Made by a program: the position numbers and the translations under genes. Positions 22,283-64,000 of a stretch of DNA of 64,000 nt are shown here, in pieces. The stretch is from a virus. The notes below the pieces were generated by a model. The model was not told where the DNA came from and did no database searches. It saw only the letters and a program-made list of their open reading frames with translations. The stretch lies in the IMG/VR virus record IMGVR_UViG_3300020404_000180, positions 1 to 64,000 of that record; one strand, written 5' to 3'. Numbering within the stretch: position 1 is the stretch's first letter; every line of letters starts with the position of its first letter.

Positions 22283-23661
22283 TACTGATACCTCGTTCCT
22301 GTTACTGAGAATGCTCCAGTGACACATGCACCAGAAGACTGACCTTGATGACCTTTAGGTTCTGCTTTAAAACCTAGTACAATATCTCCGTCAGTAGCAT
22401 GGAATCTCTTCCATGTTCTATTGTTTTGGTATCCACCACCACCTCCTGCGTAGTTACCCATACAGTAACCCCAGTCTTGACCCATACACATGTTCTCTTC
22501 ACCAGAAGATATATCTAACTGGTTAAATGCACCACCGATAGAAGTAGATGTAAGATCATTAAACTTCAACCAAGGAAGTGTTACGTTGTTTCCATTACCA
22601 TGGTAGCAGAATCCCCATTTGGTTGACAAGTCTTTCTTCCAACCATCTCCACCCCAACCAGATAAACTGTAGGATGATACAGACTCATTACTGAACTGTA
22701 CGTATCTTGCGTTACCAGTATCACCATATAAGTGACATCTAGTCTCACCCTCGGATCCAGTAGCATTACCATTACCAAAACCATTACCTAGTCTAGTAGA
22801 CATTTCAGTAACAAAGTTCAATCTCTGTATGCTGCCAGGACCTCCACCCGCTGTGTAACCTCTTTGTGTCACCTGACCAGAAGCACAACCAGGATCATCT
22901 GTACTATCCCAACTGTCTATAGATGCACCAATACTATCAGGTGTAGAGTTATATGCATCACCATGACCATAGGTTCCGTTAGGACCGAAGGATCTATTGG
23001 TTCCAGTGTGTAGGTTTACACTACTGACTGCCTGACCAGAACCACCGTAGGAGTTCTGTGTACCATAGACATAACCATTGAAGTCACCGAAGTTTCCATC
23101 AACATATGATGCTGCTCTATCTAACTGGTCTCCACGACAAATAGTAACGTCTGTTGCGTGATATATTTGATTAACTGTTCTCCATGGATTAGATCCTCTG
23201 TATCCACCAATCAGAAATCCATGTGTAAAAATACTGCGATATAAAAATGATGAACCAACTGTTATGTTATACAAGTTTCCTTGATAGTCATACCATTGTC
23301 CTGTGCCACTGTAAGGTAGATAGTTTGCAGAAGAGACTGACGGGTTCTGTGCGTTAACACCACCTGTGTCTGTGTTGTAAGGACCGAAGTTGTTATTACC
23401 GTAACTTCCTTGAAATGCTGCCTGACCAGATTCTGCTGCAACTGCAGTTCCCCAAAATGCATTCTTACCATCAGACATCAATATACCACCCGCAGTCACA
23501 GGACTTTGTGATGGTAGTGTCTCAAATAAAACACCGTTCTGTAGTAAGTTACCAGTAAAATTTATATTTCCAGTAACGTCAATATTCTTTGGAATATCAA
23601 CTGTACTACCCGAAGAAGTTAGTGTGTTTACCTGTGAGGTAGCTGCATTTATCTGTGACAT
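22282..23661 (-). CDS. Probable virion protein: short fibre-like N-terminus plus kelch/beta-propeller-like Gly/aromatic repeats
   Basis: About six spaced units: GFLIGGY, GYVYGT, RGYTAGG, CHLYGD, GFCYHGNG, WGYCMGNY. Confidence 0.7.
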   Translation of the reverse strand: MSQINAATSQVNTLTSSGSTVDIPKNIDVTGNINFTGNLLQNGVLFETLPSQSPVTAGGILMSDGKNAFWGTAVAAESGQAAFQGSYGNNNFGPYNTDTGGVNAQNPSVSSANYLPYSGTGQWYDYQGNLYNITVGSSFLYRSIFTHGFLIGGYRGSNPWRTVNQIYHATDVTICRGDQLDRAASYVDGNFGDFNGYVYGTQNSYGGSGQAVSSVNLHTGTNRSFGPNGTYGHGDAYNSTPDSIGASIDSWDSTDDPGCASGQVTQRGYTAGGGPGSIQRLNFVTEMSTRLGNGFGNGNATGSEGETRCHLYGDTGNARYVQFSNESVSSYSLSGWGGDGWKKDLSTKWGFCYHGNGNNVTLPWLKFNDLTSTSIGGAFNQLDISSGEENMCMGQDWGYCMGNYAGGGGGYQNNRTWKRFHATDGDIVLGFKAEPKGHQGQSSGACVTGAFSVTGTRYQ

Positions 23662-27700: not shown

Positions 27701-30700
27701 TAGTATGGCGTCAGATGTTGTAGGTCTAATTGATTGTAATGCATACTCCCATGAAGAATCACCACGTAAGAAACTAAATGAGTTTGCAGTTCCTTTACTT
27801 GCTAATCTTTCTGGGTCAATAGTACCAGCAACAATATTTGATGCATCAATGTTAGTTGATGTTAACTGTGTCCAGTTTGCAGCGTTAGATGCTGATGTAT
27901 TGATTGTTCTAGTAAGGTCAACAATTCTCTTCCTTGCAAAGTTACCAGACGTGGTAGCAGCAGTAGGAGAAGTAATAGAATATTGATTTGAGTTTAATAA
28001 TGTTATAGCGTAGAAACCATCAGGTGCAGTTCCTGTTGTGAAATCAAAGAACTGTAGAGAACCGTTAGATAAACCATGTGAACTCTCAGTGAATGTAATC
28101 GTTGTGCTTCCACTCTGTGAGTAAGTTCCAGTTGCTAAGTTCGCTAGTGCTTGGTCAACAATAAAGTCAGATGCTTCAAACTTGATATTGTTAGCAATGT
28201 TGATTGCAACTCTACCTTCTATCTGTGCAGCAATAACTGCATTATTAGATGAACCACTAGGTGATGTTAATACCTGTACTGTTGGTTGTGAGTAGTAACC
28301 TTTACCAAGGTTTGTAATCTCAACTCTAGTTACAACACCACTGGTTACTTTTGCTGTAGCAGCAGCTTGAACTCCATTACTTGTGTCGTCAGGTGCAGAT
28401 ATTGTAAGGTTAAAGTCTCCAGAATATCCAGAACCACCACTACTGATAACGTAGTTAAATACAGCACCATCATTGTATGATTGTACAGTACCACGTGCAG
28501 TTGTAGAACTACCAACAACGATATCACCATTACTAAATTGGAATGCACTGTTAGGTGCAAATGCTAAGAACTGACTCTCTAAGTCATTCTCTAAGATGTA
28601 AGAGATAGCAACACCAGCGGTTACAAATTGATGAGTACCAGAACCTTGACTTGATAATGTTATCGCAGCACCAGAGTTAGCATTTGATGTTGTTGCAGCA
28701 AGTTTGATTGTGTTATCATCAATCTTGATAACGTAGTAAACGTTATTTGTTGCAAGACCACCGATTGAGGATGAACCCTCTGTGTATGTCAACTGGTCTC
28801 CAGTTGATGTACCGTGTCCAGTAATTGTAATTGTGTCCGCACCAGTATTGACTGATGAAGATGCTACAGAGAATGTAGTAGCAGATGTTTGTATTGCAAT
28901 ATCACCAGCGTTTGCGTCTTCAATCGCAAGTCTTTCTGCCTGTGATGCAACAGATGTAATATTAAATGGACGTAAGGCAGGAATCTGGTCAATGTTAATC
29001 TTACCGTTTGATGTCAACTGAACCAGTGCAGATGGAACTGCGTTTGTTGAGAATGGTTGGTTGAGGTAAGGTCCTAAGTTGTTAGAGATATAATCTTTAA
29101 CAGATGCCTGTGTAGGTAGTAAGGAGTCAGATGCGAATGTACCACCAAGTGTATCAGCAGCAGAGAATCCTGTAATTGTAATGTCACCACCAACAATCTT
29201 GATAGATGTAAGTTCTGAGATTGCAACTGTACCAACGAAACTAATAGCACCAGTTCTGTTGAAGATAGTAACAAAATTACCAACCTTGAAGTCACCAAAT
29301 TCGTTCGTACCAGATGTATAAACCTGACCGAATTGTTCTTCTGCTGCTTCAAATGCACTTCCTAATCCAACACCACCGTTCTGAGGTAATGCAGCATATG
29401 TGTTACCAGAACCAGCGTATTCCCAAGTGTGTGATGATGAGTTACATACAGATGGTCTATGGAATTTAATACCTAAACTTACTAGATTTGATAGTGCTAA
29501 ACTTCCAGCAACAAATCCAGAATCGTTAGATGACTGATACCTATTACCATTACTGATATTGGTAAAGTCCATTGACCTGTTGGTCTTAATCTTAGCAACA
29601 ATCTGTGTGCCAGGTGAACCAGAAACCAATTCTGTTTCTAGAATTATATGCTCTACAGCAAGGTCAGATGACCTATGACCATCAATCTTGATGATGTAAT
29701 CTTCAATAGGTATGTTTGTTAATGATGTACCAGATACTTGGATAACTTGTCTACCTGTTGGTGTACCATTTCCATCGACGTCTTCTGTAATAGAATCAAT
29801 AACACCGACGTCAAATGTGTATGCTTCTGCTCTAAATCCTGTAGCACGTAGTGAGAAAGTACCAAAGTTAGATGCAGAGTTTGTAACAGATGCATAACCA
29901 CCAGACTGTACTAAGATACCATCTTGACAGAAGATAGCAAACACAGAAACCAACTGTGTGTAACCATCATTACTGATGTTGTACGCAGTACCACCAAAAC
30001 ATATAATGGTGAATGCGTTTGCAACCATTGACTTACCTTGTGGGTCAAACTGTGCAACAGTAGCACCCTGTGAGTTTTGTTTTAAACCAGCTCTAGGTAC
30101 GTTTGGTGTAGCAACCTTAGCACCATCAATCTCACAACCAGAACCACCAAGGAATGATATAAGTGAAGAGTTCTGAATGTATGGAGATGCTTCAATGATT
30201 GGAAGGTCTAAGTGTACATTTCCTAATGGGAACGAATATGATGATTGATCCTGTTCAGTAATTACTGGGTCAGGATTTGTAATTGCACCACTGTATGCTG
30301 TAGCACTTGATAATACGTTATCTAATATACCCCAGTTTGTAGTCAATGCAGATACAACATTAGCACACTCAGGTGCAGATGAATCTACAGTAATAGAACC
30401 ATTGGATGTAATTGGTATTTGTGAGAACTGACCAGTCTCTAAATTATTTCTTATTGCGTCTATTGATAGTTCTTTTGCTGCAGCGAACATTGCACGACTA
30501 TACTGTACCTCGTTGTCTAGGTATTGTATTGCACCACTAGAGATATAGAGGTTTGCTGCCTCAACAATTGCTGAGTTTCCACCGTAACGTAAGTCGAACT
30601 GGAACGCACGACAAATCTTCATTACGTCATCAATACACTGTTGGTCGCCAGGTGCAGCAGTTCGTGTAACAGATGATACACTACCAGCAGTAGAACCGCT

Positions 30701-33700
30701 TCCTAACGCTGTTGTAACGGTGTTGAAGAAGGTTGTAATTGATGATACGACATTTGCACAAGAAGGTGCTGTTGCAACCGTTCTAGTAGCATGTGACATA
30801 TTGTCGTTAGCAATAGCAGTATCAAGGATTGTGAAGAATCCATCTACTAAATTTTGCTCTACAGTTGTTCCTTTATTGTTGTTGTCAGTTACCTGTGTAA
30901 ATCCGTGATTACCCTCTATGGTAATTGTCTCACTAGCAGCTGCTTGTTTAGCAATTGCTTTTGCTATTGCAAATACTGCACGTGATTCTGTTTCTTCTCC
31001 ATCAAGGTGTGTAGAGTTTGTATACAACTGTGCTGCATCATATACTTGCTCATTTCCACCATGTGCTAAGTTGTAAACTACAGTACGTACAAAATCACTA
31101 ACGTCATCTATACAGTTTTGATTTCCACCAGGCACATTGTGTGATGGGTTATCTATGTTGTAACGTTGAACTGACTCAAATGCAATCAAGTCTAAGTTCT
31201 TAAGAATTAGAGTTGCAGCATAACCAGATACAGTTTGTGCAGGAGTATCTAATGTAAGAGTATGATAGTATTGTAATTTTGTTGAGTTACCATAACGATG
31301 TATTGGTAGATTTCTTGATGCTAAGATACATGCATCTTTTGCATTGTTGAATACTTCTACATAACGGTCTCTTGTTAGTGAGAAACCAGGATCAATATAG
31401 AATTTTGCTTGGTCATAGACTCTATCGTTTCCACCCCACTTTAAGTTGTGTGCAAGTGCTTTCTGTATGAAGTCTCTAACATCATCGTAGCATGCTGTAC
31501 TACCTGTAGGAATAGTGTAACCACTATTAGCAGCAAGCATTTTATTGACTGCATAATCTGCAATCATATCTGCGTTACCAAATAGTAACTCTGCAGCATC
31601 AGCATACTTGTTATCTACTGGTATGCTGTTTGGAGTTCTAAATGGTTTCTGTAAATCTGTAAATGTACCAACAGTTCCTGTCTGACCATTAGCAGTATTG
31701 TTTGCTAGGTCTACAACAAATTTTCTGTCGTCAATAATGTCCTTAAGACCATGAGTACCATTGACCACTGCGTTACCAGAGTTAGCAATAGTAATTTCTG
31801 TGATTGCTTTCTTAACTGAGTTAGCACCAGCACTTACAAAATAATGTGTTGAAGTGTCAGATGATACACCAACGTTAACTTCAAATGTATTAGTTTGTTT
31901 GTTTGATATCTTTAACCACTTGTCAAATGCAGGGTCACTACCTCTAGGATATGGATGTTTAGTTGCACGAGAGTCGGTGTCACATTCAAATACAAACGCA
32001 CCAGCATCAAACTTAACTAAGTCTCCGTTTTGGAAACCATGGTTTGCTATGGTTACTTCAAATACACCAGTGCCAGGTGTGTATGTTGCACCAGTAGGTG
32101 TATGCTGACTAAAGTTTGGATATAAGTTATGTCCTCTCTGTACAATAATTGTACAATCATCGCCTGATACAGACCATGATGTCATCTTCTTCGCAATAGT
32201 ATCTGCTGCTACTCCGAAATTTGTTCCACCAATAGTAAGTGCATTAGTACGAGTAGCGGATGATTCATAATAATATTTGACATATGCTACTGCCTCCTGT
32301 GCAATAAATTCTTGGTTTATCTTGATTGCCTCAGCACCATCTAAGAATCTATCACTCTGATTAATAGCAGTAAATCCATAAGGAGAGTTCCTCAAGGATG
32401 CTAGTACATAGTTAGAAGATGATACAACTGTTTGGTCACCAGTTGGGTTGATAGAAGCACCAACCTGTGATATGTTTCCACGAATAACAAATTGTAGTGA
32501 GAAACCATCAGCACGTTCAATACGATGTGTGATGTATTTTCTACCATTGAGGTCTTCAAGGTTGTCTAAGATACTAACGCCAGAACCAGAACCAGTTGTT
32601 ACATCGCTAGCAGTATCAATATTTGCTTGCTTTAGAACAAAGGTTACAGTCAAGTTAGAACTGTTGTACCTAGCAACACCTAAACCTAAATCAGTGTTTG
32701 ATGGTAATGTAGGAGTTCCAGAACCTTGAGTGAATCCATCAATATTATATGTCTTACTAAATCTCTCAAAACCAGCAGGGAAGTTGAATGTAATACCCGC
32801 TTCAGTTAGAGATGCCCAGTTAGCAAATAATGTTCCTGTTTTTGTATTGTCAACACTTGATACAGTAACTGTAATCTCTCCACCAGAGATTGTAAAGTTA
32901 GTATTTGTTGATGTACCGAAATCTATTGCAGAGTTTTGGAAACCATATACTTGAACTTCTTGTCCAACCTCATAGTCATGGAAATCAGAACTTGTACTAG
33001 AACTTGCAAGTGTAAAGATAGGACCGTTATAAGTTGCTACAGTGTTCAGTGATGTGTCAATCGTTGTGATTGATAAGACTCTTTCCTGTATGTCAAATCT
33101 TTGGAAACCCTTACCAGCACTTGTTATATCAATTGTAATAGGATCATCAGCACCAGATGCATTCTTCTGTGTTGCGTTAGCAGCAGATGCTGCTAATCTG
33201 ATATAATCATCGTTTTCTTTATATACAAAATATGCAGTGCCATCAACAAGACCACCTATCGCACCCATTTTTCCAGCACGATATATGATGCCTTCTCCAG
33301 TTGATAGTAAATGATTATCAATAAAGATATTATTTGCTTCTGGCATTATATTACCAGACTCAAATACATGGAAACTATCGTCAGGAGATACATTTGTGAT
33401 GTCTTTTCTACCCTGAGTTACGCTAAGGTTTATAGCGTTAGCATGAGTGTCATATAATTCAATAGTATCTGCATCAATAACTCTGACATAGTAGACAGTG
33501 GTGTCAATTAAACCTGGCAGAGGATTGAGGTTTTCGTCTTTACTATAGTATACTGCTGCACCTGTTTTATATCTGTGTGCAGTAAGTGTAATTCTGTCTA
33601 GAGCAACATCAATAAAGTTTGTACTACCTTTAAATGTGACGAATTCTCTCTCAGCATCAACAGTGTGCTGATAGATTTGGTTAGATATAACTTCTAATTC

Positions 33701-35731: not shown

Positions 35732-35739
35732 TATTTATA
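35732..35739 (-). promoter_or_regulatory. Perfect T4 late promoter TATAAATA overlapping the stop codon of the 2426-aa gene
   Basis: + strand tatttata, about 20 nt upstream of ATG 35710. Confidence 0.8.
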
Positions 35740-45453: not shown

Positions 45454-45657
45454 GTCTTTGGACACTAACCCCCTTACTATTTCTTTAAGTTCATCAAGTT
45501 CTGCTTTCACTTCTTCTAACTCTCTATCCTTCTTCTTTGCAGCAGCACGTGCTTTCTTATACGCCTCATACCCAGTAGAGTCCGTATTCACTATCGCATT
45601 AGACTTTGGGTCTCTACCTAGAGTAGTATGACCCTCTACAGGAATTAACTCCGTCAT
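45445..45657 (-). CDS. Small hypothetical protein with coiled-coil C-terminus
   Basis: PVEGH..LGRDPKSNAIVNTD..YEAY; ATGA overlap with the upstream gene. Confidence 0.8.
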   Translation of the reverse strand: MTELIPVEGHTTLGRDPKSNAIVNTDSTGYEAYKKARAAAKKKDRELEEVKAELDELKEIVRGLVSKDHK

Positions 45658-51600: not shown

Positions 51601-52334
51601 GAGAAGTTTGTACTACCGATTGCGTTATCATATAGAGTCGCATCTTCGTCAGCAGTTATAATTCTCTCTTCTACTTTTAGACCTACTTTGTAGGATGGGT
51701 TTGTACCATACTGGTCTAAAATAATTGTCTGTTCTGCAACGGTTACAAAGTATCCTCTAACAAAGTATACACCAGCACCGATGTTAGCAGTAGAACCTCT
51801 AGAGTTAGAGTTTGAGTTCAACAACTGAGCAAGAGGAGTTCCAGCAGCAATAGTTGTTGATGCATAGGTTATATCTTCTTCACAAGTAAATGTCTCTCCA
51901 TCTGTAAATGTGCTTGTGACATTATCAGATGCTTTCTCTAGGTAGTTGACATAGAATGTAATGTTATTTCTAGTAGAGGTAGTAGCACTAATAGAAAATA
52001 AAATACGTCCACGAACACCAGAGGTAGAACCTTTTATAATTTTACCACTAAGTGCATTTCTATAATTTTCTACGTCTAGGTTAAGGTAACTGTTTTGTAT
52101 TAGAACACATGGCACATCGTTGTTCAATGTAATACCGCCAGGCACCACCATAGAACCTTCTTTATAGACACCTTGACCAAACGTGTCTATTTGGTTCTGC
52201 AATAAACTTTGCAGCGTCGTAAGTTCTCTTGCCTGTACTGGATAGCCAGGTTTGAACAATACTTTTAAAAACCCCTTATCAGAATCAAAGTCGTCGTAAT
52301 AAGGAGCTATGTTTAGGTTGGTATTCTGTGCCAT
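45654..52334 (-). CDS. DUF4815 / VrlC-like large virion structural protein
   Basis: NLNIAPYYDDFD...VLFKPGYPVQARELTTLQS, APGADRFKI, LEYYTQLSLLE, RFKNGFIVDNF, NVNPFNV, DPLAQTF, LFKSQNASTW. Confidence 0.9.
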   Translation of the reverse strand: MAQNTNLNIAPYYDDFDSDKGFLKVLFKPGYPVQARELTTLQSLLQNQIDTFGQGVYKEGSMVVPGGITLNNDVPCVLIQNSYLNLDVENYRNALSGKIIKGSTSGVRGRILFSISATTSTRNNITFYVNYLEKASDNVTSTFTDGETFTCEEDITYASTTIAAGTPLAQLLNSNSNSRGSTANIGAGVYFVRGYFVTVAEQTIILDQYGTNPSYKVGLKVEERIITADEDATLYDNAIGSTNFSAPGADRFKINLTLVKKILTAPNSADFIELLRTNIGNIEKRVERSDLSFINDILATRTKEESGNYYVKKFKVDARENLDDGFNNGVYASTELTSSGVAPSEENMSVQLSSGCAYVQGYRTERLSTTYTDVDKPRTFDTQSNQSLTSDFGNFIFTTNQHQAPTMYETVELRDTLTSTPGVAAGNVIGVTRAINFTYESGALNNQTTLYRTNIIDTQFYVKIVTTGSVTWTAGNLLFGATSGAVGFVVSGSGTTGYLYETNGEFVAGEVLKTNNASGSTFATVASGGVRKYGFGDVKSYAFGTGGTADAVLDVKVALPGSGPILSGVSGTGTSATGTITSTLSNFASQLRIGDIIEFSNNDLVHKATITAVTNNFSFTIASLTSNNIANGALTSPVIRTRPELKEANKKRLITPLGFNAVKNTNNNNTQNPAGFFRISVNTTVNGSGEASANAGAGLLWKNGADNDDFQVIITSGSGDGDVLSSGNGFSISGTSANTQTIALTGLSNTGGSDTITIIGTVYSSDRSAKAKTTERMKVLKIDDTTGSAVNGLTTVAGGFGTRVDDTSISLGTGDVFKIKAIYESKDSNDPIIPNFQYTNLLGTLAIDDVITGDSSGSRARIVSTTSNYVYFVPIEDDQFTEGETITAPNATLKISTGGITKGSTDITSSFDLDDGQRDQFYDYSRIVRKAGFAPPTHKIIVIFDRFLTTNGTSPYTVDSYPTSEYKIIPSYTNVELRDVIDYRPIVPESLTGSGSQASPFTLSGTKYFDFNNRAFTGNETGLPGLGDSTILSLQYYLPRIDKIFMSRDSVIQIVKGAPSTRPQAPEDIEDAMLLATLTYNAYVFDVEQDVSIEETNYKRYTFRDIQYLEDRIKTLEYYTQLSLLEGETASMEIRDTSGLSRFKNGFIVDNFASLATADTLHPDYRVSTDFEEGYLRPAHYTTQVPLSYSTASQNVQQTDDIITLPYTSEVLIDQPYASAVENVNPFNVFTYVGDIELYPESDNWIDTTSLNPLQGPVVEGNFLTTVREYNADQNGFSPIQWNSWKTTWTGSNTTRQVGAWRRHGKRRNRRDRTITTTTTTTTKQTRTGIRYRVTPVIEQQSLGSRVVSVEHIQFMRSRNIEFTCQKLKPRTKFFAFFDGIALPKKLITPKIMGLIKDPSSDAQTNSIPFQIGETVHVKKSNGKFRFKARVAAPNENMQINPLDGTDISATNDYTSNLGFINIDTKSLADQVKGSYYGSPKLNDYLVGETSGAVAKVSNKDMITDKQGNLRGSFFIDAPNTAGNLKFKTGTKLFRLTDSETNNRTVGVSDSNGEAEFVSSGLLQTTQETIISVRNARVTSEDQFDARTLVNVSSTSVNETRYCDPLAQTFLIEDSSLEGGVFLTKIDLFFFTKDEEIPVALDIRTVENGTPTQTILPFSKVVKQAADVFTSSDASKPTTFTFKAPVFIPYRTEHAMILTSDSNQYKVFISLLGKDAIDAAHQGEKISEQPYIGVLFKSQNASTWTPSQYEDLMFKIYRADFTLPTTAAPSRLMLENAQLGEQNGGFLNLAPNTLRTTSGSDEIRVFHSNHGMQSGLNYVKMSGVISEVADTTINMGGGFDTTSTSLTVTDASQFHTTIGGSAVSSSNLGFIRIRGTQEDGSGDEIIAYEGISGNVITINSSGRNHNGTSGSGTGFAHANNAVVECYNFDGIPLTLINTTHNSTTGGLISLNSPHSYNLKITNKTATSGITGGGTNVVVSQNVPWDALTPQIQSQLEPRTSMVARALGTSGTSCGPFPAGTTAETSFIKDTIYEDITIGEENYFTNTKVIANELNEINRMNSTKSFTMELNLSSEVSHLSPVIDLTRCSIITHANQYNNIEPTAGIGGECAGNYITKVAQLEKSATGLKVMLAANTFEQSKIVVMFKLVPVGFAGNLDELEFRYFNSTGVPDIGRLIPQNDLETFTDYEYTVEDTDEFDGFQIKISLLGYDQPYIPRVRDFRGIALA

Positions 52335-53868: not shown

Positions 53869-53876
53869 TATTTATA
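53869..53876 (-). promoter_or_regulatory. Perfect T4 late promoter TATAAATA overlapping the gp7 stop codon
   Basis: + strand tatttata, about 20 nt upstream of the gp8 ATG. Confidence 0.8.
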
Positions 53877-56800
53877 ATGATCTTAGACGAACTTCTGGTA
53901 GCAGAGAGCAGTTTCCGCTTGCTGTCCGCGAGAATGGAAATTCGACTGTGAACGATGTTGCTGTTGTAACAGTAACTTTGTAAGAACCATCAAATCCAGT
54001 TCCTGATGTGCAATCCAAATAGAATTCCTGACCAGTACTTAAATTATGATTAGAACTTGTAGTCACGGTGCATAAAGTTCCTGATGAACTATATGTACCA
54101 GTAATGACTGGGTGTGCAGCAGCAGTGGTACCTAAGTAACCTCTACCACCAGTAGCAACAGTTAGTGTTTCTGCTACTGTATCCTTAGAACCATACAAGA
54201 TTCTTTCGGCACTCCACACACTATTTACACTGTCATAAAATGGTATCAAAATTTCACCTTCATCAGGGAATCCATTTTTCTGTGATGAATCAAACCAAAC
54301 ATTCTTTAGATTTATTGTTGTGCCAGATTGTGATAGTGTAGACGTTAGGTATGTAGCAGATAAGTTTTTAGAATTAGATATAAGTCTATTTCTTTGTTTT
54401 CTTTCCACTGCAATTGGGTGTGTTGGAAGCACAGTTGGAGCACTTGTATAATTTGCACCACCTTGTAAGTTTACTACACCTGTAACTCTACCACTACCTA
54501 TTTCTATTGTTGTTTCTGCAAATGCTCCTTCTCCACCACCACCTTGGAATAGTAGGATAGGTGGTACCTCATAGTTAGAACCAGCATTGATGATGTCTAC
54601 CTGTGTTACTGCACCGTTGACTATAGTAGCAACAAACTCTGCAGTTGATGGTCTTAGACCTGTATACTCATAACTGTCAATAGTGGTAGAACTAGAAACC
54701 TTAGCGATTGAACGGTCAGAACCCTCAGAGTCAATCTGGAATCTATCTCCTATATCTAATGAGTTAAATGTGTTGCTGACTAGAACGTCCTCAGCAGAAC
54801 CTGTAAATATGAATATTTCACAAGTTGATCCTGCACGTGGTGGTTCACTAAACTCTATAATAGAACCTGTTAGAGTAAATGCTACACCTGGCTCTTGATA
54901 GATTCCGTTTAAGAATATGAGTAGGTTGTTTTGTGCTTCTACTTCTACGTTGTCACTTTCTAGTGAGAATGGTTCAGTATCCTCTTTCATAGTAAATGTC
55001 TTCTTCTGACTATCAAAGAATGGTGCAATCTCATCTAGTAATGTCAACTTACCAAGATAGAATCCGTAGAAGTCCATGCCTGGCAGAGGTGCTTCTGTAA
55101 ATGTTATTGTGCTTCCTGTATATGTGTATGCTTCTGTAGTACCCTTGACTTGGAATGTGCTATTCAAGAATATCAAGAAGTTATCACTAGCGGGTAGTAC
55201 TTGTGTACTACCGCCTACCTGTGCAGTAAATATTTTATCAGTGCCATCAAAGGTTACTGTGTCTACTTCTACTTGGAAGAATGGTTGTGTTGCAGATGTC
55301 CTTGTAATACCATTAAGATTACCAGAACCCCCTGCTGTAGTTCCAACTGCCTGTGTTACTATCGCCCAGAGAGTTGTTATTGTCGATGCTGTGTCAATAC
55401 AACATGCTTCAGAGTATGATGTGCTTCCAGAGTCATTACTGATTGTATTGTCTTTGACCTGTGTACCTACAGTGTATGAGTTTGTAGTAACTGTAAGGTT
55501 ACGCATAACCTGACGACAAATATCTCTAGCAGCATTGAATACTTCTACAGATTGATCTTCTTCTCCTGTTAGGTGTGCTGTAGCAACATAGAAGTTAGCA
55601 GCATCATAAGTTGCATCGTTACCGCCAAACTCTATATTGTCAGCAACTGCATCTACGAGTAATTTAGTATCACGAATACACTTGACCTGATAAGAACTAG
55701 AGAATCCAGCATTGTTTGCCATCATTCTACCATATGCAGTTGTAGCAATAAATTCTTGGTTTGTTCTTAGTAGTGATGCACCATCTGCGTTCTTGCTGTA
55801 ACCATATACACCGTATGATACAACTGCTCTTGTGACAGCAGTAGAAGTGGCACTAACAAATGTATGAGTTGATGTATCAGATGATACACCGACGTTAACA
55901 GTGAATGTATCATTTGTTACTGCGTCAATTGTATGCCATGCACCCTCTGATGGGTCACCTACTCTAGGATATGTGTGCTGTGTTTGATTGTTGTCTAGAC
56001 CACATGTAAATGTAAGACTGTTTGTAGCAAAGTATATTCTGTCACCCTTAATCATGCCATGACCAGAAACAGTCACGACCATCTCACCTGTAGTTGGTGT
56101 GTAAGCAATATCTGTAGGTTGGAACTGGTATGTTGATAATCCTACCCATGTATGTGAGTCAGTGTTTGTAGCAGTTGTACCGTTCAATGCATTGACTGTA
56201 ATCGTAGTCGTACCAACCGCTTCCACAGGTATATCTTTCATCTTACCCTGTGTACCTATTGGGTCAGTAGCACGTGGATATGATGCAGTACCACCACCAT
56301 TGTAACCACAACTAAACTGTAATGATTCGTTTGCAATTCTAACTGTGGATACTGCAAACTTGACACTATTTGACACTGCAGATACAAATGTATGTGCATC
56401 AGTATTTGTAGAAGGAATACTGTCTAATACTTGTACAGTAAATGTATTTTCTGTGCAATCAAATACTTGTAACCATCTATCAGATGCGTAGTCTGTAGAA
56501 CGAGGATATGCTTCGTCACCACCACCATTGTAACCACAGTTAAATGTAATCGCACCATCTGCAAACTTAACTTGGTCACCATTGACAAGTCCATGACTAT
56601 TGATAGTTACCACCATCAAACCAGTTGTACCACTGTAGGTTGCACCGCCTGGCGTATGTGTTGTTGGTGCAGATAAACCATGACCAGATCCTATAGTCAA
56701 TACCATCTCACCAGATGCAGGAGCATAAGTTCCTGTTGATGGAAGGAAGTTCTTAACTAACTGTTCTCCAACACGAGGATCCGATATTCCTAATACATCG

Positions 56801-59800
56801 TTATCTGTATATCCATTACCAGCAGTATTAAGTGCAACTCCTGTTACCTTACCACCAGTGACTGTAATGTCAGCAGTAGCACCAACGCCTCCACCTAGAT
56901 TATTTTTCAGTGGCACGTTTGTGTATACACCATCGCTATATGTGTTGCCAGATGTAATTGCACCGAATGTTTTTATCTCATCTCCAATTTGATCTAACTG
57001 GAAACTAGATGTGTAACTTGCACGGTCATAATACATGCAAAGAATCTTAGTCTCAGCAAGAGGAGGTGTAAGGAATGTTATGGCGTCGTTTGCAAATGTA
57101 TATGTTGCAGGGTTTGTTACTAGACCATTTGTCATTACGAGTAGTTGCTTCTTATCAGCAGCATGACCAATCTTAGTTCCAATATCAATATTGTTTGTTC
57201 TCAACTTAAATGTATCGTTGATACCATCAATGAATAATCTTAGTGAGTGTCCTACACCAGTTCCTAATGATGATAGATTAATTGCACTACCACCTTCAGT
57301 AGTAGCAAGTTGTATTGTATTTGCATCTACAAATTTAACATAGTATGCAGAACCATTTGTTAGACCACCAACAGGTGTACCAGTTCTATTGTTAGGATAG
57401 TTACCAGTATTGACTGTAGGTAGAGTAGATGGATTGTCTATACCTTCTGTGATGATTCCAGACAATGTAGTAATTGCACTCTTAACGTCTGAACATCCAC
57501 CTGAGTCTACTGTAATACTCAAGTCAGTAACAGGAGCAATGTTTGTGTAAGTTCCTTCTGGTAGACTATTGGTAACTGCTAGGTTACATAAGTCTCTTGC
57601 TTTGTTAAATGCAAATATAGTCTCTGTCTCTTCACCAGCAATATGTGTAATGTATCCAACTGGGTTTGTCCTTGTGACAGTTGACAAACTGTCTGTACTA
57701 ATTGCAGTAGTAATGATATTGAACAAAGTATCCATTGCAGCGTCAACTGTGGCACATATCGCTGCATCAAATGTTACACCAGTATTTGTTACTTGAGTAA
57801 ATCCATGACTACCTTGGATATTGATAGCAGTATTAACTATGACATCAGCTGCTAACTCTTTTGCCTTATCAAATGCCCAGATTGCCTGTGTCTCTTCGCC
57901 ATCTAAGTGTACAGTATTGACATAGAGATTTGCAGCATCCCATACCTCACTGTTTGCACCGTATGTCAAGTTATATGCAATTGCCTCTATACAATCTACA
58001 ATATCATCTATACAGTTCTGAGGTCCGCCAGGCACACCAGCAAATCCACTTGGAATACCGACTGTTGCATCTTCTAACATTAGATGCACTGCCTCAGCAG
58101 CAATCAAGTTCTTATTATTCTTAAGTAAGTTACCAGCATCAATATATGCATTGCCTTGACTTATTACTCCACCAATGTATGAGTTAGTTGCTGCAACAGT
58201 AAAGTAGTTACCACCATACTTGAGGTCATTAGTCCATGCAGCAATTACTAATCTTGTGTCTCTAGCACATGTTGCATTGTTATAGTTGAGTGATGGATAC
58301 TGTGCATTCAAAGCACCAATAGTCTCTTCTACAATATGGTCGATGTTGTTGATAATCAAATCTCTAGCATCTTGGAATCTATCACCACCAGCGTTGTAGA
58401 TTACACGTTGGTTATTAAGGAATCCATGACCAGTAAGTGTAATTTGGTCACTACTTGTGTTGACGATGCTGCTAGAAGATGCATCGAAGTTAATTGTTCT
58501 GTCACTGATGTCATCAATCTTATAAACGATACAAGATAAGATTTTCTGTATGTCTAGTAGTTGTCTACCAAAAATCGAGACCTCAGTTGGTACAAGTGCA
58601 CTGTAGTCGGGTTTGGCAAGTGCAAAATTGTTAATAGTAGCAAGCTTACCAGTATTCTTAGCAGACGGTTTAGGTGTAACGTAGGTTGTTCCATTGAAGG
58701 TGCTTCCAATACTATTTGTTGTCGGTACCCACCAGTCAGTAGAATTACCAGAGTTCAAGTCTAGATTTGCTTTAGACCTGTAATCCTTTTTAACTGTCTG
58801 TGTAATGACCTGTGTTCCAACAACCTTGAATCCAGCAGGATGTGCTGCAAACTTAAGTGGATTCTTCCAGTTGTTGATATTAACTGATGATGATATGTCA
58901 TATGAGAACTCTTGGAACCTATCGCTATCATATACACGCTGTTCATTAAGATCCAAGAATCCAGTTGTCCTTTCCCAACCAGATGCACTGATACTAATAG
59001 GTGATACGTCAAATACTGCATCTGCACGACTAAATGCATGTATCTGACCAAATGCTGCAGTCTCTTCTCCAAATACAGGTTCGCCAACCTTAAACTCGCC
59101 TTCTACTATCTCTACACTAACAACACGACCAGATGCGTCCCAATTCTTCACAAAACCGTATGCAGTGAATGAACTTGTTGATGCACCTTGATAAATCCTC
59201 TCTCCAACCGAGAAAGTTGCTGGTTTCATAAATGCATTGATGGTATCACCTAAATCTGTTGTTTCTAGTAAGAAATAAGTTTGACCTGTTGATATATCGC
59301 CTGTTGGTGCACTTGTAAACGTAATAGTGGTTTCTGTGTTTGCATTTGCAAGAGATGTCGCTAATCTAATCTGATTATCTGCTAATCCGTTTGCAGTGGT
59401 TGCTGCAACCGCATAATAGGTTGTATTTGGTAATAATGGTTCTGGGAACTGTCCTGATTGCTGAACTAGAGTTACTTTTGTGCCAGAAGGTATTTTTGCA
59501 TTATAAGGGAAGTTGATAGTGCTACTTGACTGTAATCCAACCCAAGTATGTGTAACTTTAGCAGATACAGTTGGTGCAGACGTAAATCCTCTACCAGCGT
59601 TCTCTACAAGCACTGATTGGATGACTTCGTTCTCAATAATTGGTTTTAATGAGAATAATGACCCTTGACCACCTGTAAGAACGATTGTTGGGTTAGCAAC
59701 GAAGTTTTGACCACCATTTACAACATCTAGGTAGTCAATGACCTGAGTTCTGATTAATTGTAGATTATAGGTTGTGTTTAGTGATGGTTTTAGTGTTCTA

Positions 59801-62800
59801 TCGTGAGAATAGTTGTAAGTGATGTTATCACCACTGATTTTAAGTATCTTACCTAAGTCAGATGACTTAAGAAGTATAGATGCACCAGATCCTGTCTTTT
59901 GCTCGATGTTAACAACTGGAGGTGACTGATATTGCTGACCACCTGTCTCTATGGTAACTGCGGTAACACTTTGGTTCTGAATAGTCGCATTTAAGACTGC
60001 ATTGATACCATTACCACCACTAACCGATACAGTAGGTGCAGATAAGAAACCAGAACCACCATTTGTCACTGTGACTGTATCAATTGCTGCATCAATGACT
60101 GTAGCGATGCTTGCAGGGTCATCAAAGGACAATGTATCGACTTGTATAGTAAAATCTTCTGTACTATCACCGCCAGGCAACTTAGTACCATCAAATGTCA
60201 AGATTGATGATGTATCGTATGCAGATCCACCAGCAGTTACGGTTACTGTACTGATTCTACCATTACCGTCAGTGACAATAGTAAATTCAGCACCAGATGC
60301 ACCATTTGGGTTTACTGATGTTTGAGTAACGCCTGTAGTTGTGGTATCTGCAGTAAATGTACCATTACCAGCGGGTTGAGTCTTAAGAGACGCAGTTGCG
60401 ACTGACCCATAGTAAGGATCATCAAATATAATGTCAGGAGCACTCCTGTAATTAGAACCAGCTTGAGTAATTGTAACACTTGCAAGTTTTCCACCACCAC
60501 TGACCGCTGAAGAGACAGTTGCTTGTGTACCACTGATTGCTTGTACAGAACCTTGTGAGTCAGAACTGTAAACAGTATTAGTCTCAGCAGTTCCTGTGCT
60601 AAACATGATGTATCCTTTGTTACCAGCACCTACTCTCTCATTTTTAAGTGGTTTGATTCTCAATACAGAGTTAACTGGGTTCCATGATATTACTTGACCC
60701 CTAGCAGTTGTATTTGCCTGTGTCTGTTGTGATATGACTATCTCATTAGGTATGAATGACCCGAATACATTTTGTAGTGTTAAATCTACAAAGTCAGGAA
60801 GTGTAACTACTGCAGTAGGTAATGAAGCAGCATTGTATCCTGCACCATCGTTTGTGATAGAGACATTGGATAGAGAACCAGATATTGTAGCAGTCGCTGT
60901 TGCACCAGAACCAGAACGTGTAGAACCACTGAGTTTAGGTAGTGATGAGTAGTTTCTGCCAGGATCACCAATTGTGATTGTCTTGATTCCACCTGTAGCG
61001 TATATGCTGTTGGTATCATATGATACACCTGTACTATAACCTGTCTCAGGTTCTAGAGCAGTAATGTAGTCGAATGTAGTATCTGTCTTTGCTGAGACTA
61101 TGTTAGTTCCTATTACTGGGTCGTTGATTGTTGTGAAATACCTTGATGATAATAATGTGCCAGAACTTACAGATATTCTATTACCCATATAACCGTGTGC
61201 TTGGCAAGCATAGTAGAGCGTGCTAGGAGCGTCTTCTGCAACTGTGATACTAACACTACGTGTGGTTGCTGTTGCAAACCCTGTAGCATATGATGCATAG
61301 TCAGGCATGACTACACCATCTAGTGTGTAGGTTACGTTTGTCTCGTATCTCTCTACTCCACCGTACGCAGATTCGCTTTGAGAGAAGTAAATTGCGTGAG
61401 TAGTATTACTTGAGTCATTTTGCTCAAACTTATATGTCGCACCTTTTACAAATTTTAGTGCGGGTGCTTGTGTGACTTCGTTATATTCACCACCAACTAA
61501 GTAATAACCATTACCACTGCCTTGACCGAAGTATGCGTGTGCGGAAGTCTTCGCTGCTACAGTAGTAGTGTAAGTAACTACGTTTGCACCTTCTATCAAA
61601 TCAAAGTAGTAGAATATGCCTGGCAAACCAGTTATCTTAACAGTAATAGAATTCTGTTCGTTAGTTACCGTGTCTAATACTTCAGCAGTAATATTCTTGT
61701 AAGTGAATATGTCTGTGTTGAGCGGATCAAATGTAAATGCAAGTTTCTTACCATTGTTAGATGCGTCACTAGTGTCAAAGTTGTAAGAGTGTCCGTCAAT
61801 GAGTTGTAACTTTGGTTCCTTGTTGTATACAGTAGCGGAACCTACGTTTGCTGCTGCAGGAGTAGCAAAGTTACTCTTGATTGTAAATCTCCTTAATGAC
61901 TCAGTTCTAACAACCTGATAACCTGTATTATTATAAGACGTAGGTGAGACGCCTGAGACTAATACTATATCGCCTATACCTAGTTGATGTGCTAATGTAG
62001 TATGGAAAACTGCTTCTCGCTGTGTTTCTGTCAGTGTAATGGTAAAACCAGAACCAGCAGGACTGGTTGCATTACCTAAGTTGATGTTATCTGCAGATAT
62101 TGTATCTCCTACGTTATATCCAGTTCCGCTACTTGTGATTGTAACAGATGATACACTGTTACCTGTAACCACGATAGTTGCTCTAGCACCTAGACCAGAA
62201 CCATTAGTTGTAATTGGCACATTGCTGTAGGTTCCGTTTTCGTAGTTAGAACCACCTGTAATACTTGACCATCCGTCTTGATGTAGGTTACCGTCTGTGC
62301 GGAGTCTTACGTATGTCCATACAAGGTTGCCATCAGATACAGAACCAGATGTATGTGTGGGTGCATTAGCAACATCACTATCTGATGTTCCGCTTGATGC
62401 TGCCTTGTACACTCTATTGTCTACGTAAACAAGATCCTCTTGATTGTATGCTGTACTATTTGTCCACGCACCGATTAGTTTGATGCTCTGTAAATCGTAA
62501 TACTTGAAGTAATACTTGTTATTGTATATCTTAGTATTGATTGTTCGTGTGTTACTATTGTCCGCCACGGATACGGTAACTTGGTCACCAGGCAAGAGAT
62601 AGTGATTAGTTGATGTAGCAACTGTAGTAGTGTAGATGTCATTGAAACTTGATACTGCGTTTGTTATACCTGTAGCAAGCACGCCTTCTACAGTAGAGAC
62701 TACTCCGCTTACTCCGTCGCCATTAGTTCCTGTGTTATCGAAGAGAAGTCTATCATTTACCTTATACTCTTTACCACCACCTTCTACAAGATACTGGTCA

Positions 62801-64000
62801 ATACCAGATGAGGAATACTGGTTTGTTGCGGAAACAACTAGGGAGTCTGCAGTACCACCTCTAATGAACGGATAGTAACTATAGTAACCAATACCATCTT
62901 CGATGTATGTAAGTGTTTCTCCGCTCTCCATTACAATGAGAGTAGTAGTATCTTCTAGTGCAAGGAAGAAGTCAACCTTGTTGTCTAACTGTTTTCTCTT
63001 TGCAACGATATTGTCAACACCTACGTATGGTGCTCTGTATCTTATTGCGTCTTCTGTAAAGTTTTTCTGTAATCCGTTACCATCCCAGTTTGTAGAATCT
63101 GCCTCTGCGTAAAACTTAGGACCTATGAAGTAAGGGAACGCGGGTTCTCCAGCAGAACCTTTGATTGTTGTGAAGTAAGCGTATACACCATTTGGGTATT
63201 CTGGAGTTACACAGAATCTACCATTATATTCATCTAAATCACCTAAACCTTGTATATACTCATAATCCTCAATATAAGTCCCTAGAGGGTCACTGAGACC
63301 GCTTAGAAGAGAACTTCTGTTGGTCTTGACTCTATAACTACTGATTATCTGTTTATATGAATTATATGGTGATGCATTCTCTGGGTCAACGTAACCGTAA
63401 GGTCCGTAGATAGGGTGTCCATCATACGCCCAACCAATGATAGGTGAGTGTGCTGTAGGGTTGAGTTCCGTAAGTGCTGTGCTTATACTATCCTTAGTAA
63501 GGAATCTAAGTTTCTTAGGGTTATGTAAGTATCCGTATTCTCCGCCATATATCAAATAGTTCTCACCTTGGAATACACCACCACCCGCATTGTCTGTAGT
63601 TTTGCGGTTTACAAATGCGGGATCTCCTAATTCTTCCGCAGTTGCTGCTTCGTTAAATGTTAATTCTGTAAGTTTAGTTTGGAATACCGCACCTGAGCCA
63701 GGATAAACAATGCTTACTGTTGTAGCACCCGCTGTATATCCCGCACCTTTGTTAGTAACTACGACACCAGTAACGATATTGGAGCTCTGGTCTACTTGAG
63801 CAAACGCGGTAGCACCTACTCCATCACCAAGAATGACAACATCAGGTGCACCATAGTATCCACTTCCTCCAAATGTGACGATTATACTTTCTATCTTTCC
63901 GTTTAGTATTGATGGATACGCAACAGCACCACTACCAGTAATTAACTTGATAGTAGGTTCGTAAGTATATTGACTACCTGTGTCTGTAATAGTGACAGTG
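53872..64000 (-). CDS. gp7: Giant baseplate wedge initiator (partial, over 3370 aa) with YHYH, cupredoxin-like and phycobiliprotein-like domains
   Basis: gp7-type DRFQEFSYDISS...W...HPAGFKVVG (about 58815-58930); directly upstream of gp8; frame read manually has no stop from 63555 to the window edge, so the TTG start in the track is not the real start. Confidence 0.85.
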   Translation of the reverse strand, partial: TVTITDTGSQYTYEPTIKLITGSGAVAYPSILNGKIESIIVTFGGSGYYGAPDVVILGDGVGATAFAQVDQSSNIVTGVVVTNKGAGYTAGATTVSIVYPGSGAVFQTKLTELTFNEAATAEELGDPAFVNRKTTDNAGGGVFQGENYLIYGGEYGYLHNPKKLRFLTKDSISTALTELNPTAHSPIIGWAYDGHPIYGPYGYVDPENASPYNSYKQIISSYRVKTNRSSLLSGLSDPLGTYIEDYEYIQGLGDLDEYNGRFCVTPEYPNGVYAYFTTIKGSAGEPAFPYFIGPKFYAEADSTNWDGNGLQKNFTEDAIRYRAPYVGVDNIVAKRKQLDNKVDFFLALEDTTTLIVMESGETLTYIEDGIGYYSYYPFIRGGTADSLVVSATNQYSSSGIDQYLVEGGGKEYKVNDRLLFDNTGTNGDGVSGVVSTVEGVLATGITNAVSSFNDIYTTTVATSTNHYLLPGDQVTVSVADNSNTRTINTKIYNNKYYFKYYDLQSIKLIGAWTNSTAYNQEDLVYVDNRVYKAASSGTSDSDVANAPTHTSGSVSDGNLVWTYVRLRTDGNLHQDGWSSITGGSNYENGTYSNVPITTNGSGLGARATIVVTGNSVSSVTITSSGTGYNVGDTISADNINLGNATSPAGSGFTITLTETQREAVFHTTLAHQLGIGDIVLVSGVSPTSYNNTGYQVVRTESLRRFTIKSNFATPAAANVGSATVYNKEPKLQLIDGHSYNFDTSDASNNGKKLAFTFDPLNTDIFTYKNITAEVLDTVTNEQNSITVKITGLPGIFYYFDLIEGANVVTYTTTVAAKTSAHAYFGQGSGNGYYLVGGEYNEVTQAPALKFVKGATYKFEQNDSSNTTHAIYFSQSESAYGGVERYETNVTYTLDGVVMPDYASYATGFATATTRSVSITVAEDAPSTLYYACQAHGYMGNRISVSSGTLLSSRYFTTINDPVIGTNIVSAKTDTTFDYITALEPETGYSTGVSYDTNSIYATGGIKTITIGDPGRNYSSLPKLSGSTRSGSGATATATISGSLSNVSITNDGAGYNAASLPTAVVTLPDFVDLTLQNVFGSFIPNEIVISQQTQANTTARGQVISWNPVNSVLRIKPLKNERVGAGNKGYIMFSTGTAETNTVYSSDSQGSVQAISGTQATVSSAVSGGGKLASVTITQAGSNYRSAPDIIFDDPYYGSVATASLKTQPAGNGTFTADTTTTGVTQTSVNPNGASGAEFTIVTDGNGRISTVTVTAGGSAYDTSSILTFDGTKLPGGDSTEDFTIQVDTLSFDDPASIATVIDAAIDTVTVTNGGSGFLSAPTVSVSGGNGINAVLNATIQNQSVTAVTIETGGQQYQSPPVVNIEQKTGSGASILLKSSDLGKILKISGDNITYNYSHDRTLKPSLNTTYNLQLIRTQVIDYLDVVNGGQNFVANPTIVLTGGQGSLFSLKPIIENEVIQSVLVENAGRGFTSAPTVSAKVTHTWVGLQSSSTINFPYNAKIPSGTKVTLVQQSGQFPEPLLPNTTYYAVAATTANGLADNQIRLATSLANANTETTITFTSAPTGDISTGQTYFLLETTDLGDTINAFMKPATFSVGERIYQGASTSSFTAYGFVKNWDASGRVVSVEIVEGEFKVGEPVFGEETAAFGQIHAFSRADAVFDVSPISISASGWERTTGFLDLNEQRVYDSDRFQEFSYDISSSVNINNWKNPLKFAAHPAGFKVVGTQVITQTVKKDYRSKANLDLNSGNSTDWWVPTTNSIGSTFNGTTYVTPKPSAKNTGKLATINNFALAKPDYSALVPTEVSIFGRQLLDIQKILSCIVYKIDDISDRTINFDASSSSIVNTSSDQITLTGHGFLNNQRVIYNAGGDRFQDARDLIINNIDHIVEETIGALNAQYPSLNYNNATCARDTRLVIAAWTNDLKYGGNYFTVAATNSYIGGVISQGNAYIDAGNLLKNNKNLIAAEAVHLMLEDATVGIPSGFAGVPGGPQNCIDDIVDCIEAIAYNLTYGANSEVWDAANLYVNTVHLDGEETQAIWAFDKAKELAADVIVNTAINIQGSHGFTQVTNTGVTFDAAICATVDAAMDTLFNIITTAISTDSLSTVTRTNPVGYITHIAGEETETIFAFNKARDLCNLAVTNSLPEGTYTNIAPVTDLSITVDSGGCSDVKSAITTLSGIITEGIDNPSTLPTVNTGNYPNNRTGTPVGGLTNGSAYYVKFVDANTIQLATTEGGSAINLSSLGTGVGHSLRLFIDGINDTFKLRTNNIDIGTKIGHAADKKQLLVMTNGLVTNPATYTFANDAITFLTPPLAETKILCMYYDRASYTSSFQLDQIGDEIKTFGAITSGNTYSDGVYTNVPLKNNLGGGVGATADITVTGGKVTGVALNTAGNGYTDNDVLGISDPRVGEQLVKNFLPSTGTYAPASGEMVLTIGSGHGLSAPTTHTPGGATYSGTTGLMVVTINSHGLVNGDQVKFADGAITFNCGYNGGGDEAYPRSTDYASDRWLQVFDCTENTFTVQVLDSIPSTNTDAHTFVSAVSNSVKFAVSTVRIANESLQFSCGYNGGGTASYPRATDPIGTQGKMKDIPVEAVGTTTITVNALNGTTATNTDSHTWVGLSTYQFQPTDIAYTPTTGEMVVTVSGHGMIKGDRIYFATNSLTFTCGLDNNQTQHTYPRVGDPSEGAWHTIDAVTNDTFTVNVGVSSDTSTHTFVSATSTAVTRAVVSYGVYGYSKNADGASLLRTNQEFIATTAYGRMMANNAGFSSSYQVKCIRDTKLLVDAVADNIEFGGNDATYDAANFYVATAHLTGEEDQSVEVFNAARDICRQVMRNLTVTTNSYTVGTQVKDNTISNDSGSTSYSEACCIDTASTITTLWAIVTQAVGTTAGGSGNLNGITRTSATQPFFQVEVDTVTFDGTDKIFTAQVGGSTQVLPASDNFLIFLNSTFQVKGTTEAYTYTGSTITFTEAPLPGMDFYGFYLGKLTLLDEIAPFFDSQKKTFTMKEDTEPFSLESDNVEVEAQNNLLIFLNGIYQEPGVAFTLTGSIIEFSEPPRAGSTCEIFIFTGSAEDVLVSNTFNSLDIGDRFQIDSEGSDRSIAKVSSSTTIDSYEYTGLRPSTAEFVATIVNGAVTQVDIINAGSNYEVPPILLFQGGGGEGAFAETTIEIGSGRVTGVVNLQGGANYTSAPTVLPTHPIAVERKQRNRLISNSKNLSATYLTSTLSQSGTTINLKNVWFDSSQKNGFPDEGEILIPFYDSVNSVWSAERILYGSKDTVAETLTVATGGRGYLGTTAAAHPVITGTYSSSGTLCTVTTSSNHNLSTGQEFYLDCTSGTGFDGSYKVTVTTATSFTVEFPFSRTASGNCSLLPEVRLRSL
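61165..61580 (-). repeat. Dispersed repeat copy B (cupredoxin-like domain); partner at 12838-13243
   Basis: TVAAKT..H.Y..QGSG.GYY..GG.Y..VTQAP.L.FVKGATY.F.Q.D.S.TTHAIYFS...APSTLYYACQAH.YMGN in both proteins. Confidence 0.85.

Follow-up and report, generated by a model that had tools for sequence, protein, structure and literature searches.

The DNA considered here is a stretch of 64,000 nucleotides of virus sequence (positions 1 to 64,000 of the IMG/VR record IMGVR_UViG_3300020404_000180), hereafter the window, and coordinates are positions within it. A gp7-type giant baseplate wedge protein encoded in the window contains a unit of 148 residues three times, with unit 2 sitting within unit 1. 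Judged by sequence profiles and a predicted structure, these units are true relatives of the phycobiliproteins (PBPs), the light-harvesting pigment proteins of the host, and keep the pigment-attachment residues; each is a PBP truncated to the part from helix B through helix H. This domain identity, together with the nesting, is regarded as nearly certain. It is further proposed that the units may be bilin-loaded, PBP-derived photoreceptor modules on the baseplate and fibres, which are loaded by the phage protein CpeT and gate adsorption or baseplate triggering by light; a probability of about 0.2 is assigned to this reading as a whole. Literature searches found no publication on PBP-like domains in phage virion proteins, and the co-occurrence of the units with CpeT, the portal tree, and the adsorption comparison described below are new in this analysis.

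Three Units in the gp7-Type Protein

The units were located with a 148-position profile built in two search rounds over 267 homologous proteins, which yielded 2159 domain matches. Along the gp7-type protein, profile positions 2–70 correspond to residues 1877–1944 (the first part of unit 1), positions 2–148 to residues 1954–2100 (unit 2), and positions 71–148 to residues 2118–2187 (the second part of unit 1). Unit 3 (positions 1–148, residues 2738–2885) lies 550 residues downstream of the nested pair. In an alignment of the region with relatives (A4), 7 of the 14 rows, the relatives L011–L021, carry unit 1 in one piece; they are 70–77% identical over the flanks and have one clean gap, some 175 columns wide, at the place where unit 2 stands in the window and six relatives. 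By the order of the profile matches, unit 2 is a whole domain inserted into unit 1, and the uninterrupted unit 1 of L011–L021 shows the nesting independently. Nesting is based on this profile and alignment evidence; a model of the whole nested pair made with AlphaFold2 (AF2) from the 14-row alignment was poor (predicted local distance difference test, pLDDT, 66.1; predicted template modelling score, pTM, 0.50) and was kept out of the fold searches. Among close relatives compared over 57415–58389, unit 2 is present in the window and L001–L009 and absent from L011–L021, a split suggesting that the domain-in-domain was gained or lost recently.

A preliminary description of the window, made from the letters alone, had proposed a nested pair of PBP-like domains at this place. 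All the strings that it quoted are found where it had put them in the translation of 53872–63999 (minus strand), with the Cys of C-A-R-D at residue 1911 and that of C-I-D-D at residue 1996 (Table 1). Its reading of a second complete domain that interrupts the first, which then resumes, is borne out by the 267-homologue profile and by A4, and the 14 residues that it counted between C-x-R-D and GG in unit 1 recur with identical spacing in CpcA from cyanobacterial genomes. Unit 3 and three further units in a neighbouring open reading frame (ORF) go beyond that description.

Relationship to Phycobiliproteins

In single-sequence searches, the signal is weak but all of one kind. Pfam PF00502 (Phycobilisome protein) matches the whole window protein with E 0.1 (13 bits) and a 325-amino-acid (aa) piece of it with E 9.1e-4 (19.7 bits). 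A phmmer search of PDB with a single sequence returned eight matches at E 0.044–0.58, all of them PBP beta chains, and the alignments place the C-I-D-D Cys of unit 2 on the Cys of the beta-chain C-I/L-R-D. Among the homologues, P0038 passes the PF00502 cut-off (52.2 bits, E 8.9e-14), and 55 of the 120 listed homologues carry a precomputed PF00502 assignment.

Profile searches were made with an alignment (A1) of 26 units, drawn from the window and from IMG/VR loci, in which C37, D40, G55, and Y67 are invariant. The A1 profile had 108 PDB matches at E ≤ 10, and the best 60 of the 108 are all PBPs or fluorescent proteins derived from them. The top match is phycoerythrin alpha (E 1.1e-5; profile positions 2–58 on residues 39–102), and the unit Cys falls on the Cys of its K-C-x-R-D. 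For the comparison with CpcA and CpcB, cpcBA loci were fetched from cyanobacterial genomes by a short degenerate motif. Aligned by hhalign, 603 distinct units match 74 CpcA sequences with a probability of 94.2% (E 1.1e-7) and CpcA together with CpcB with a probability of 94.5% over 96 columns; against CpcB alone, the probability is 40%. Homology to bona fide PBPs is, accordingly, detected at the profile level. Global hhalign runs gave low probabilities (2% against CpcB, 68% against CpcA) and served only as a hint to the position of a second Cys.

Predicted Fold

The AF2 model of unit 3 has a pLDDT of 91.7 and a pTM of 0.89. Compared with known structures by VIA, it is closest to phycoerythrin beta (Z 15.7, root-mean-square deviation (rmsd) 2.2 Å, 136 of 148 residues aligned with chain residues 36–183), followed by allophycocyanin (Z 14.1) and the bilin domain of ApcE (Z 13.4), while other globins reach about 10 or less. 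The PDB rows listed by Foldseek are all PBPs (TMq 0.57–0.74; best E 5e-3, none at E 0.001). The predicted fold is a PBP-type globin in which helices B, E, F, G, and H surround the Cys84 pocket, with a long loop before the last helix. The PBP-like identity put forward in the preliminary description agrees with the profiles, the model, and the Z-scores, and a fold unrelated to globins, which would have spoken against it, was not what emerged.

The weak single-sequence scores (13–19.7 bits with Pfam, E 0.04–0.6 with phmmer, a best E of 5e-3 with Foldseek) might suggest an unrelated bundle of four or five helices in which a C-x-R-D ... GG pattern has arisen by chance. However, each weak match is a PBP with the same Cys aligned every time, profiles lift the signal to E 1.1e-5 and to 94% with hhalign, the model scores above all other globins over 136 of its 148 residues, and homologues exist that clear the cut-off of the Pfam model itself. 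A chance resemblance is scarcely credible and, as far as calculations on profiles, fold, and homologues reach, is ruled out.

With the alpha and beta subunits of PBPs (CpcA/B, CpeA/B, ApcA/B, and cryptophyte beta chains), the units have in common the globin-type fold, predicted for them over helices B through H, and the aligned motifs Asn47, (F/Y)-P 63–64, and Cys84-x-Arg86-Asp87 with 14 residues to GG. By a low-confidence alignment, Cys153 of the beta subunits is placed like the second Cys that many units have before the last helix. Unlike PBPs, the 148-residue unit has no X–Y helices and no helix A, the elements that build the alpha–beta monomer; its B–E loop is 8–11 residues shorter, and its G–H loop is long. 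PBPs are free subunits of 160–180 aa, whereas the units stand in nested or tandem arrangement within virion proteins of 2000–7000 aa.

The bilin domain of ApcE is also a PBP-fold domain, embedded in a large multidomain protein (rmsd 1.9 to the unit model). It contains an insertion in a loop and needs no separate lyase for bilin attachment, and it thus provides a precedent for an embedded, interrupted, and self-loading domain. ApcE has one such domain and is a cellular protein of the phycobilisome core, whereas the insert in the window is a second whole domain in a virion baseplate protein. Globin-coupled sensors and the bilin/B12 domains of photocobilins also have a globin-like fold (Z 10–11.4) and use it for sensing instead of light harvesting; they score below PBPs, share no motif with the units, and are cellular signalling proteins.

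Residues of the Pigment Site and Classes of Units

Conservation was counted over the 603 distinct full-length units, which are about 30% identical. Cys37, the equivalent of PBP Cys84, is kept in 97% and Asp40 (Asp87) in 99%, so that the lack of conservation of Cys and Asp that would have told against the preliminary description is not seen. Asn10 (Asn47) is kept in 93%, GGN 55–57 in 84–87%, and Tyr67 in 99%. Position 39 (Arg86) is Arg in 73% and Asp in 22%. Units 1 and 3 of the window protein carry the Cys84-x-Arg86-Asp87 motif as CARD and CIRD, and unit 2 has CIDD. A second Cys before the last helix is found in about 40% of units. The Cys84 equivalent is the sole Cys in 295 of the 603 units; a disulfide is, therefore, ruled out as a general explanation of its conservation.

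Two classes can be distinguished. The C-x-R-D class comprises 432 of the 603 units, with the second Cys in 100 of them, and the C-x-D-D class comprises 131, with the second Cys in 127; columns 51 (D versus N) and 64 (G versus A) are linked to class. The pocket might have been kept for a ligand other than a bilin (such as another tetrapyrrole, a metal, or a host surface ligand) and serve receptor binding or sensing that has nothing to do with light, with CpeT as a chaperone or partner and not a lyase. The C-x-D-D class reverses the charge at the propionate-binding position, its almost regular second Cys and the linked columns suggest a changed ligand or chemistry, and related globin folds bind heme or B12/biliverdin, as in globin-coupled sensors and photocobilins (Z 10–11). 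On the other hand, the nearest relatives both by sequence and by fold are bilin-binding PBPs, the residues that define the bilin site are kept, and nothing indicates any particular alternative ligand, which makes this explanation improbable. Bilin binding by at least some of the units stands at about even odds.

Spread of the Unit Family

A C-x-[RDK]-D motif is present in all 121 homologues, with up to 25 C-x-R-D motifs in one protein. At E ≤ 1e-3, the family comprises 493 representative clusters with up to 33 matched stretches per protein. Among deposited phage genomes, units were found only in phages of Synechococcus and Prochlorococcus (323 records, none from other hosts). The unit profile had no match at E ≤ 1e-6 in 301 sampled cyanobacterial genomes, while the same profile gives E-values of 1e-20 to 1e-58 in phage genomes. 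In the samples searched, the units are virus-specific. Their structural look-alikes in BFVD bear only such UniProt names as ‘tail protein’, ‘structural protein’, and ‘tail fiber’.

Co-Occurrence with the Phage Bilin Lyase Homologue CpeT

The unit profile and the Pfam model of CpeT (PF06206) were searched in 28 complete cyanomyovirus genomes. Sixteen of these are from Sullivan et al. 2010, and 12 were taken from an evenly spaced listing of portal matches, from which five rows repeating genomes already in the set had been dropped. Units and CpeT above the Pfam cut-off occur together in 23 of the 28 genomes; one more, ACG-2014f, has weak units and a sub-threshold CpeT-like ORF (11.1 bits, E 0.038). 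Neither is present in four genomes (P-SSM2, S-SM2, S-SSM7, and S-CAM9), and in none is CpeT found without units. In P-SSM7 and S-ShM2, CpeT passes only via the summed score of two CpeT halves and a relaxed E-value. Syn1 has a strong CpeT match (E 1.5e-35), yet it is shown without a CpeT-like cluster in Table 3 of PMC3037559.

Beyond this set, neither units nor CpeT are found in the podovirus P-SSP7 or in a complete 205-kb IMG/VR genome (G310), and both stand on one contig in an IMG/VR fragment (G308). A 71%-complete sequence (G309) has units, with no CpeT seen in that incomplete sequence. The record that holds the window is likewise a fragment of 88 kb, 49% complete, in which neither CpeT nor a bilin reductase was seen. 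A portal scan of IMG/VR returned mostly short contigs (about 10 of 80 of at least 50 kb), and only G308, G309, and G310 were used.

The tree of these phages was built from the portal protein, since an earlier choice (window 22282–23661) matched just 3 of 16 genomes. The four genomes without units and CpeT fall within one clade of six members (support 100/99), which also holds ACG-2014f and S-CAM7, nested beside P-SSM2 (97/90). On this tree, the joint pattern of units and CpeT requires at least two coupled changes. Both ACG-2014f and S-CAM7 have their genes in unusual places, with units at about 183–198 kb and cpeT at about 154–157 kb, whereas most of the remaining genomes have cpeT at 13–20 kb. 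In S-PM2 and Syn1, cpeT is 1.3–1.5 kb upstream of a giant unit-bearing ORF, on the same strand. In S-PM2, this ORF is annotated as a 3779-aa ‘short tail fiber protein’ (NC_006820.1, 165928–177267, locus L281; cpeT 1.45 kb upstream, same strand); 16 tRNA features lie inside this coding sequence and look like a coordinate or annotation oddity in RefSeq.

Genes for ferredoxin-dependent bilin reductases were found in 8 of the 28 genomes, namely in all seven Prochlorococcus isolates and in S-SSM7, one of 21 Synechococcus isolates. Their distribution tracks host genus, and they were rejected as a marker of the units.

Light-Dependent Adsorption

PMC6628666 reports that adsorption of the phages P-HM1 and P-HM2 fails in darkness, that P-SSM2 shows dark adsorption, and that P-SSP7 and P-GSP1 both adsorb and replicate without light. 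The same paper, citing Jia et al. 2010, describes light-dependent adsorption of S-PM2 that does not rely on host photosynthesis. P-HM1, P-HM2, and S-PM2 have 5, 5, and 9 units, respectively, each together with CpeT, and P-SSM2 and P-SSP7 have no units and no CpeT. The presence of units is thus concordant with light-dependent adsorption in five of the five phages compared.

Possible Role of the Units

Two puzzles of cyanophage biology have stood for at least 15 years. The gene cpeT is carried by most T4-like cyanophages and bilin synthesis genes by some, even those of phycobilisome-free hosts, and adsorption of some cyanophages requires light even though it does not depend on host photosynthesis. 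A passage of PMC3037559 calls the role of phage pebS and pcyA ‘a mystery’ and that of cpeT ‘unresolved’, and phage bilin genes are treated as host-directed in the relevant passages of a 2026 pebS paper and two recent genome papers (PMC13198022, PMC10665884, PMC12801897). Because the units track cpeT in the sampled genomes and are absent from two dark-adsorbing phages, they offer a single, concrete candidate for both puzzles, one that is open to experimental testing.

In the proposed scheme, at least the C-x-R-D units would bind a bilin covalently at the Cys84 equivalent, and many units would bind a further bilin at the second Cys, placed like beta-Cys153/155. Loading would take place in the infected cell. 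The phage T-type lyase homologue CpeT would act at the second site; at the first, attachment would depend on host lyases or proceed autocatalytically, as it does in ApcE. Either the host would supply the bilin, or it would be made with the phage ho1, pebS, or pcyA products. Virions leaving the cell would then bear pigment on baseplate and fibres, most likely for the light-dependent control of adsorption or of baseplate triggering. Gating by a bound pigment is the weakest step and a doubtful one. The preliminary description had already suggested chromophore sites close to the baseplate element involved in triggering, and this functional half of it is indirectly supported by the conservation of the site and the co-occurrence with a bilin lyase homologue.

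A number of observations weigh against the bilin-loaded photoreceptor. The PF00502 gathering score of 22.2 bits is reached by neither the whole window protein nor its 325-aa piece, and units 2 and 3 scanned singly gave no PF00502 match. The profile of the C-terminal half (A2) had no match in PDB at E ≤ 10, so that the sequence homology signal lies in the N-terminal half. The unit begins at about PBP residue 36–39, and with helices X, Y, and A absent, the pocket would be more open; the loop before the Cys, shorter than in CpcA/CpcB by the 8–11 residues mentioned, lacks the beta-Asn72 stretch. The propionate-binding Arg86 is replaced by Asp in unit 2 as well as in the 22% of all units given above; together with the shorter loop and the absent helices, this tells against a pocket of canonical form. 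The second Cys is placed on beta-Cys153 by the low-confidence global alignment, and the ~40% of units are all that have it.

The genetic evidence has its own difficulties. The 28 genomes yielded no S-type lyase, the type that acts on Cys84. T-type lyases are described in PMC10452541 as serving the Cys153/155 position and not Cys84, a role that matches the second Cys but not the first, which is almost invariant. In PMC10665884, ‘cluster C’ T4-like cyanophages are reported to have an S-type cpcV in place of a T-type lyase. Bilin reductases are present in 6 of the 24 unit-bearing genomes and in 2 of the 4 unit-free ones, following host genus. Since the four double negatives lie in one clade, the concordance of units with CpeT represents few events, not 28 independent observations. 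The five phages compared for adsorption come from about four lineages, which makes the adsorption link a lead and not a test. To our knowledge, coloured cyanophage particles have never been reported, and literature searches turned up none.

The main alternative is a scaffold without pigment. A captured host PBP gene might have lost its chromophore and been multiplied as a compact helical building block or spacer in baseplate and fibre proteins, with the conserved Cys, Asp, GGN, and Tyr serving folding or inter-domain packing. Occurrence in tandem or nested arrays, with as many as 33 units in one giant structural protein, is the behaviour of a structural module; helices X, Y, and A and the 8–11 loop residues, which shield the bilin in PBPs, are gone; Arg86 is Asp in 22% of units; and the UniProt look-alikes carry structural names only. 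Packing, however, poorly explains a lone Cys outside any disulfide that is kept in 97% of units at ~30% identity and is the sole Cys in 295 of the 603, and an exapted scaffold leaves unexplained why the units co-occur with, and lie close to, a bilin lyase homologue. This explanation is a serious one, though it falls short of probable.

If light gating by bilin-loaded units were true, it would explain at last why P-HM1, P-HM2, and S-PM2 need light to adsorb and what cpeT really does in the phage, and it would mean a virus particle that senses light. Should pigment be found, this would be the first virion known to have a light-absorbing cofactor, and the “auxiliary metabolic” bilin genes would have to be re-read as virion-maturation genes. 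Even with no pigment, the units would be a clear case of a host antenna protein that was captured and multiplied as a virion building block.

The Source Phage, Its gp7-Type Protein, and Other Features of the Window

The window is a T4-like cyanophage's structural block, with the portal, tube, sheath, large terminase, and neck proteins followed by several giant baseplate and fibre proteins and, last, gp7. At the portal protein, identity to P-HM1 is 90% and to P-HM2 89%, and the window sequence groups with both in the portal tree with support 100/100; the window phage is a P-HM1/P-HM2-like cyanomyovirus, a relative of these two Prochlorococcus phages.

Table 1. Positions of the gp7-type protein and of the phycobiliprotein-like units in the window.
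Feature	Position	Strand	Basis
gp7-type giant baseplate wedge protein, 3375 aa in window, 5′-truncated by window edge	53872..63999	(-)	ORF list, PHROG, tblastn
PBP-like unit 1, N-terminal half (helix B + E equivalents), C-A-R-D Cys codon 58267-58269	58144..58374	(-)	profile 2-70, 73.2 bits
PBP-like unit 2, complete, C-I-D-D Cys codon 58012-58014, second Cys codon 57754-57756	57700..58143	(-)	profile 2-148, 125.2 bits
PBP-like unit 1, C-terminal half (helix G + H equivalents), second Cys codon 57493-57495	57439..57675	(-)	profile 71-148, 49.1 bits
PBP-like unit 3, uninterrupted, C-I-R-D Cys codon 55678-55680, Cys-Cys codons 55399-55404	55345..55788	(-)	profile 1-148, 152.9 bits
Three more PBP-like units (CIDD, CIDD, CYDD; all C-x-D-D class) in 3459-aa tail-fibre-like ORF 24782-35161	30311..31603	(-)	six-frame profile matches, 57-88 bits

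By sequence profile and by its baseplate gene neighbourhood, the unit-bearing protein belongs to the T4-type gp7 proteins. It matches the PHROG family phrog_2885, ‘baseplate wedge subunit’, with E 0, and the best tblastn matches of the region are P-HM1 and P-HM2 features named ‘gp7: baseplate wedge initiator’. The adjoining genes are baseplate wedge genes (phrog_438, phrog_32294), in the order gp6/gp8-like and then gp7. A database cluster 100% identical to the window protein (P0002) gives its full length as 4197 aa. T4 gp7 is about 1030 aa long, so the window protein is about four times longer, and the added mass includes YHYH, carbohydrate-binding-like, and PBP-like domains.

The preliminary description had placed the nested pair just C-terminal of the conserved gp7 core motif. 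This placement agrees in part with the homologue P0007, where the end of the Pfam Baseplate_wedge family (PF23786; profile 234–278) matches residues 2411–2451, about 190 residues before the first CARD. In full-length P0002, the family has only a weak N-terminal match (E 0.0037, below the cut-off).

The 3459-aa ORF with three further units belongs to phrog_5342, ‘tail fiber protein’, and has weak PF00502 matches at 31049–31219 and 31481–31618. The most N-terminal of its units (31217–31603) is without the last helix. Three other giant ORFs of the window, all on the minus strand (11495–17407, 35735–43015, and 45654–52334; 1970, 2426, and 2226 aa), gave no match to the unit profile; for two of the three, the best families are PHROGs of unknown function. 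The gp7-type protein itself has a YHYH domain (PF14240, E 2.4e-29) near its N-terminal part, at residues 152–280 (about 63160–63545, minus strand), and a weak match to CBM_5_12 at residues 511–541.

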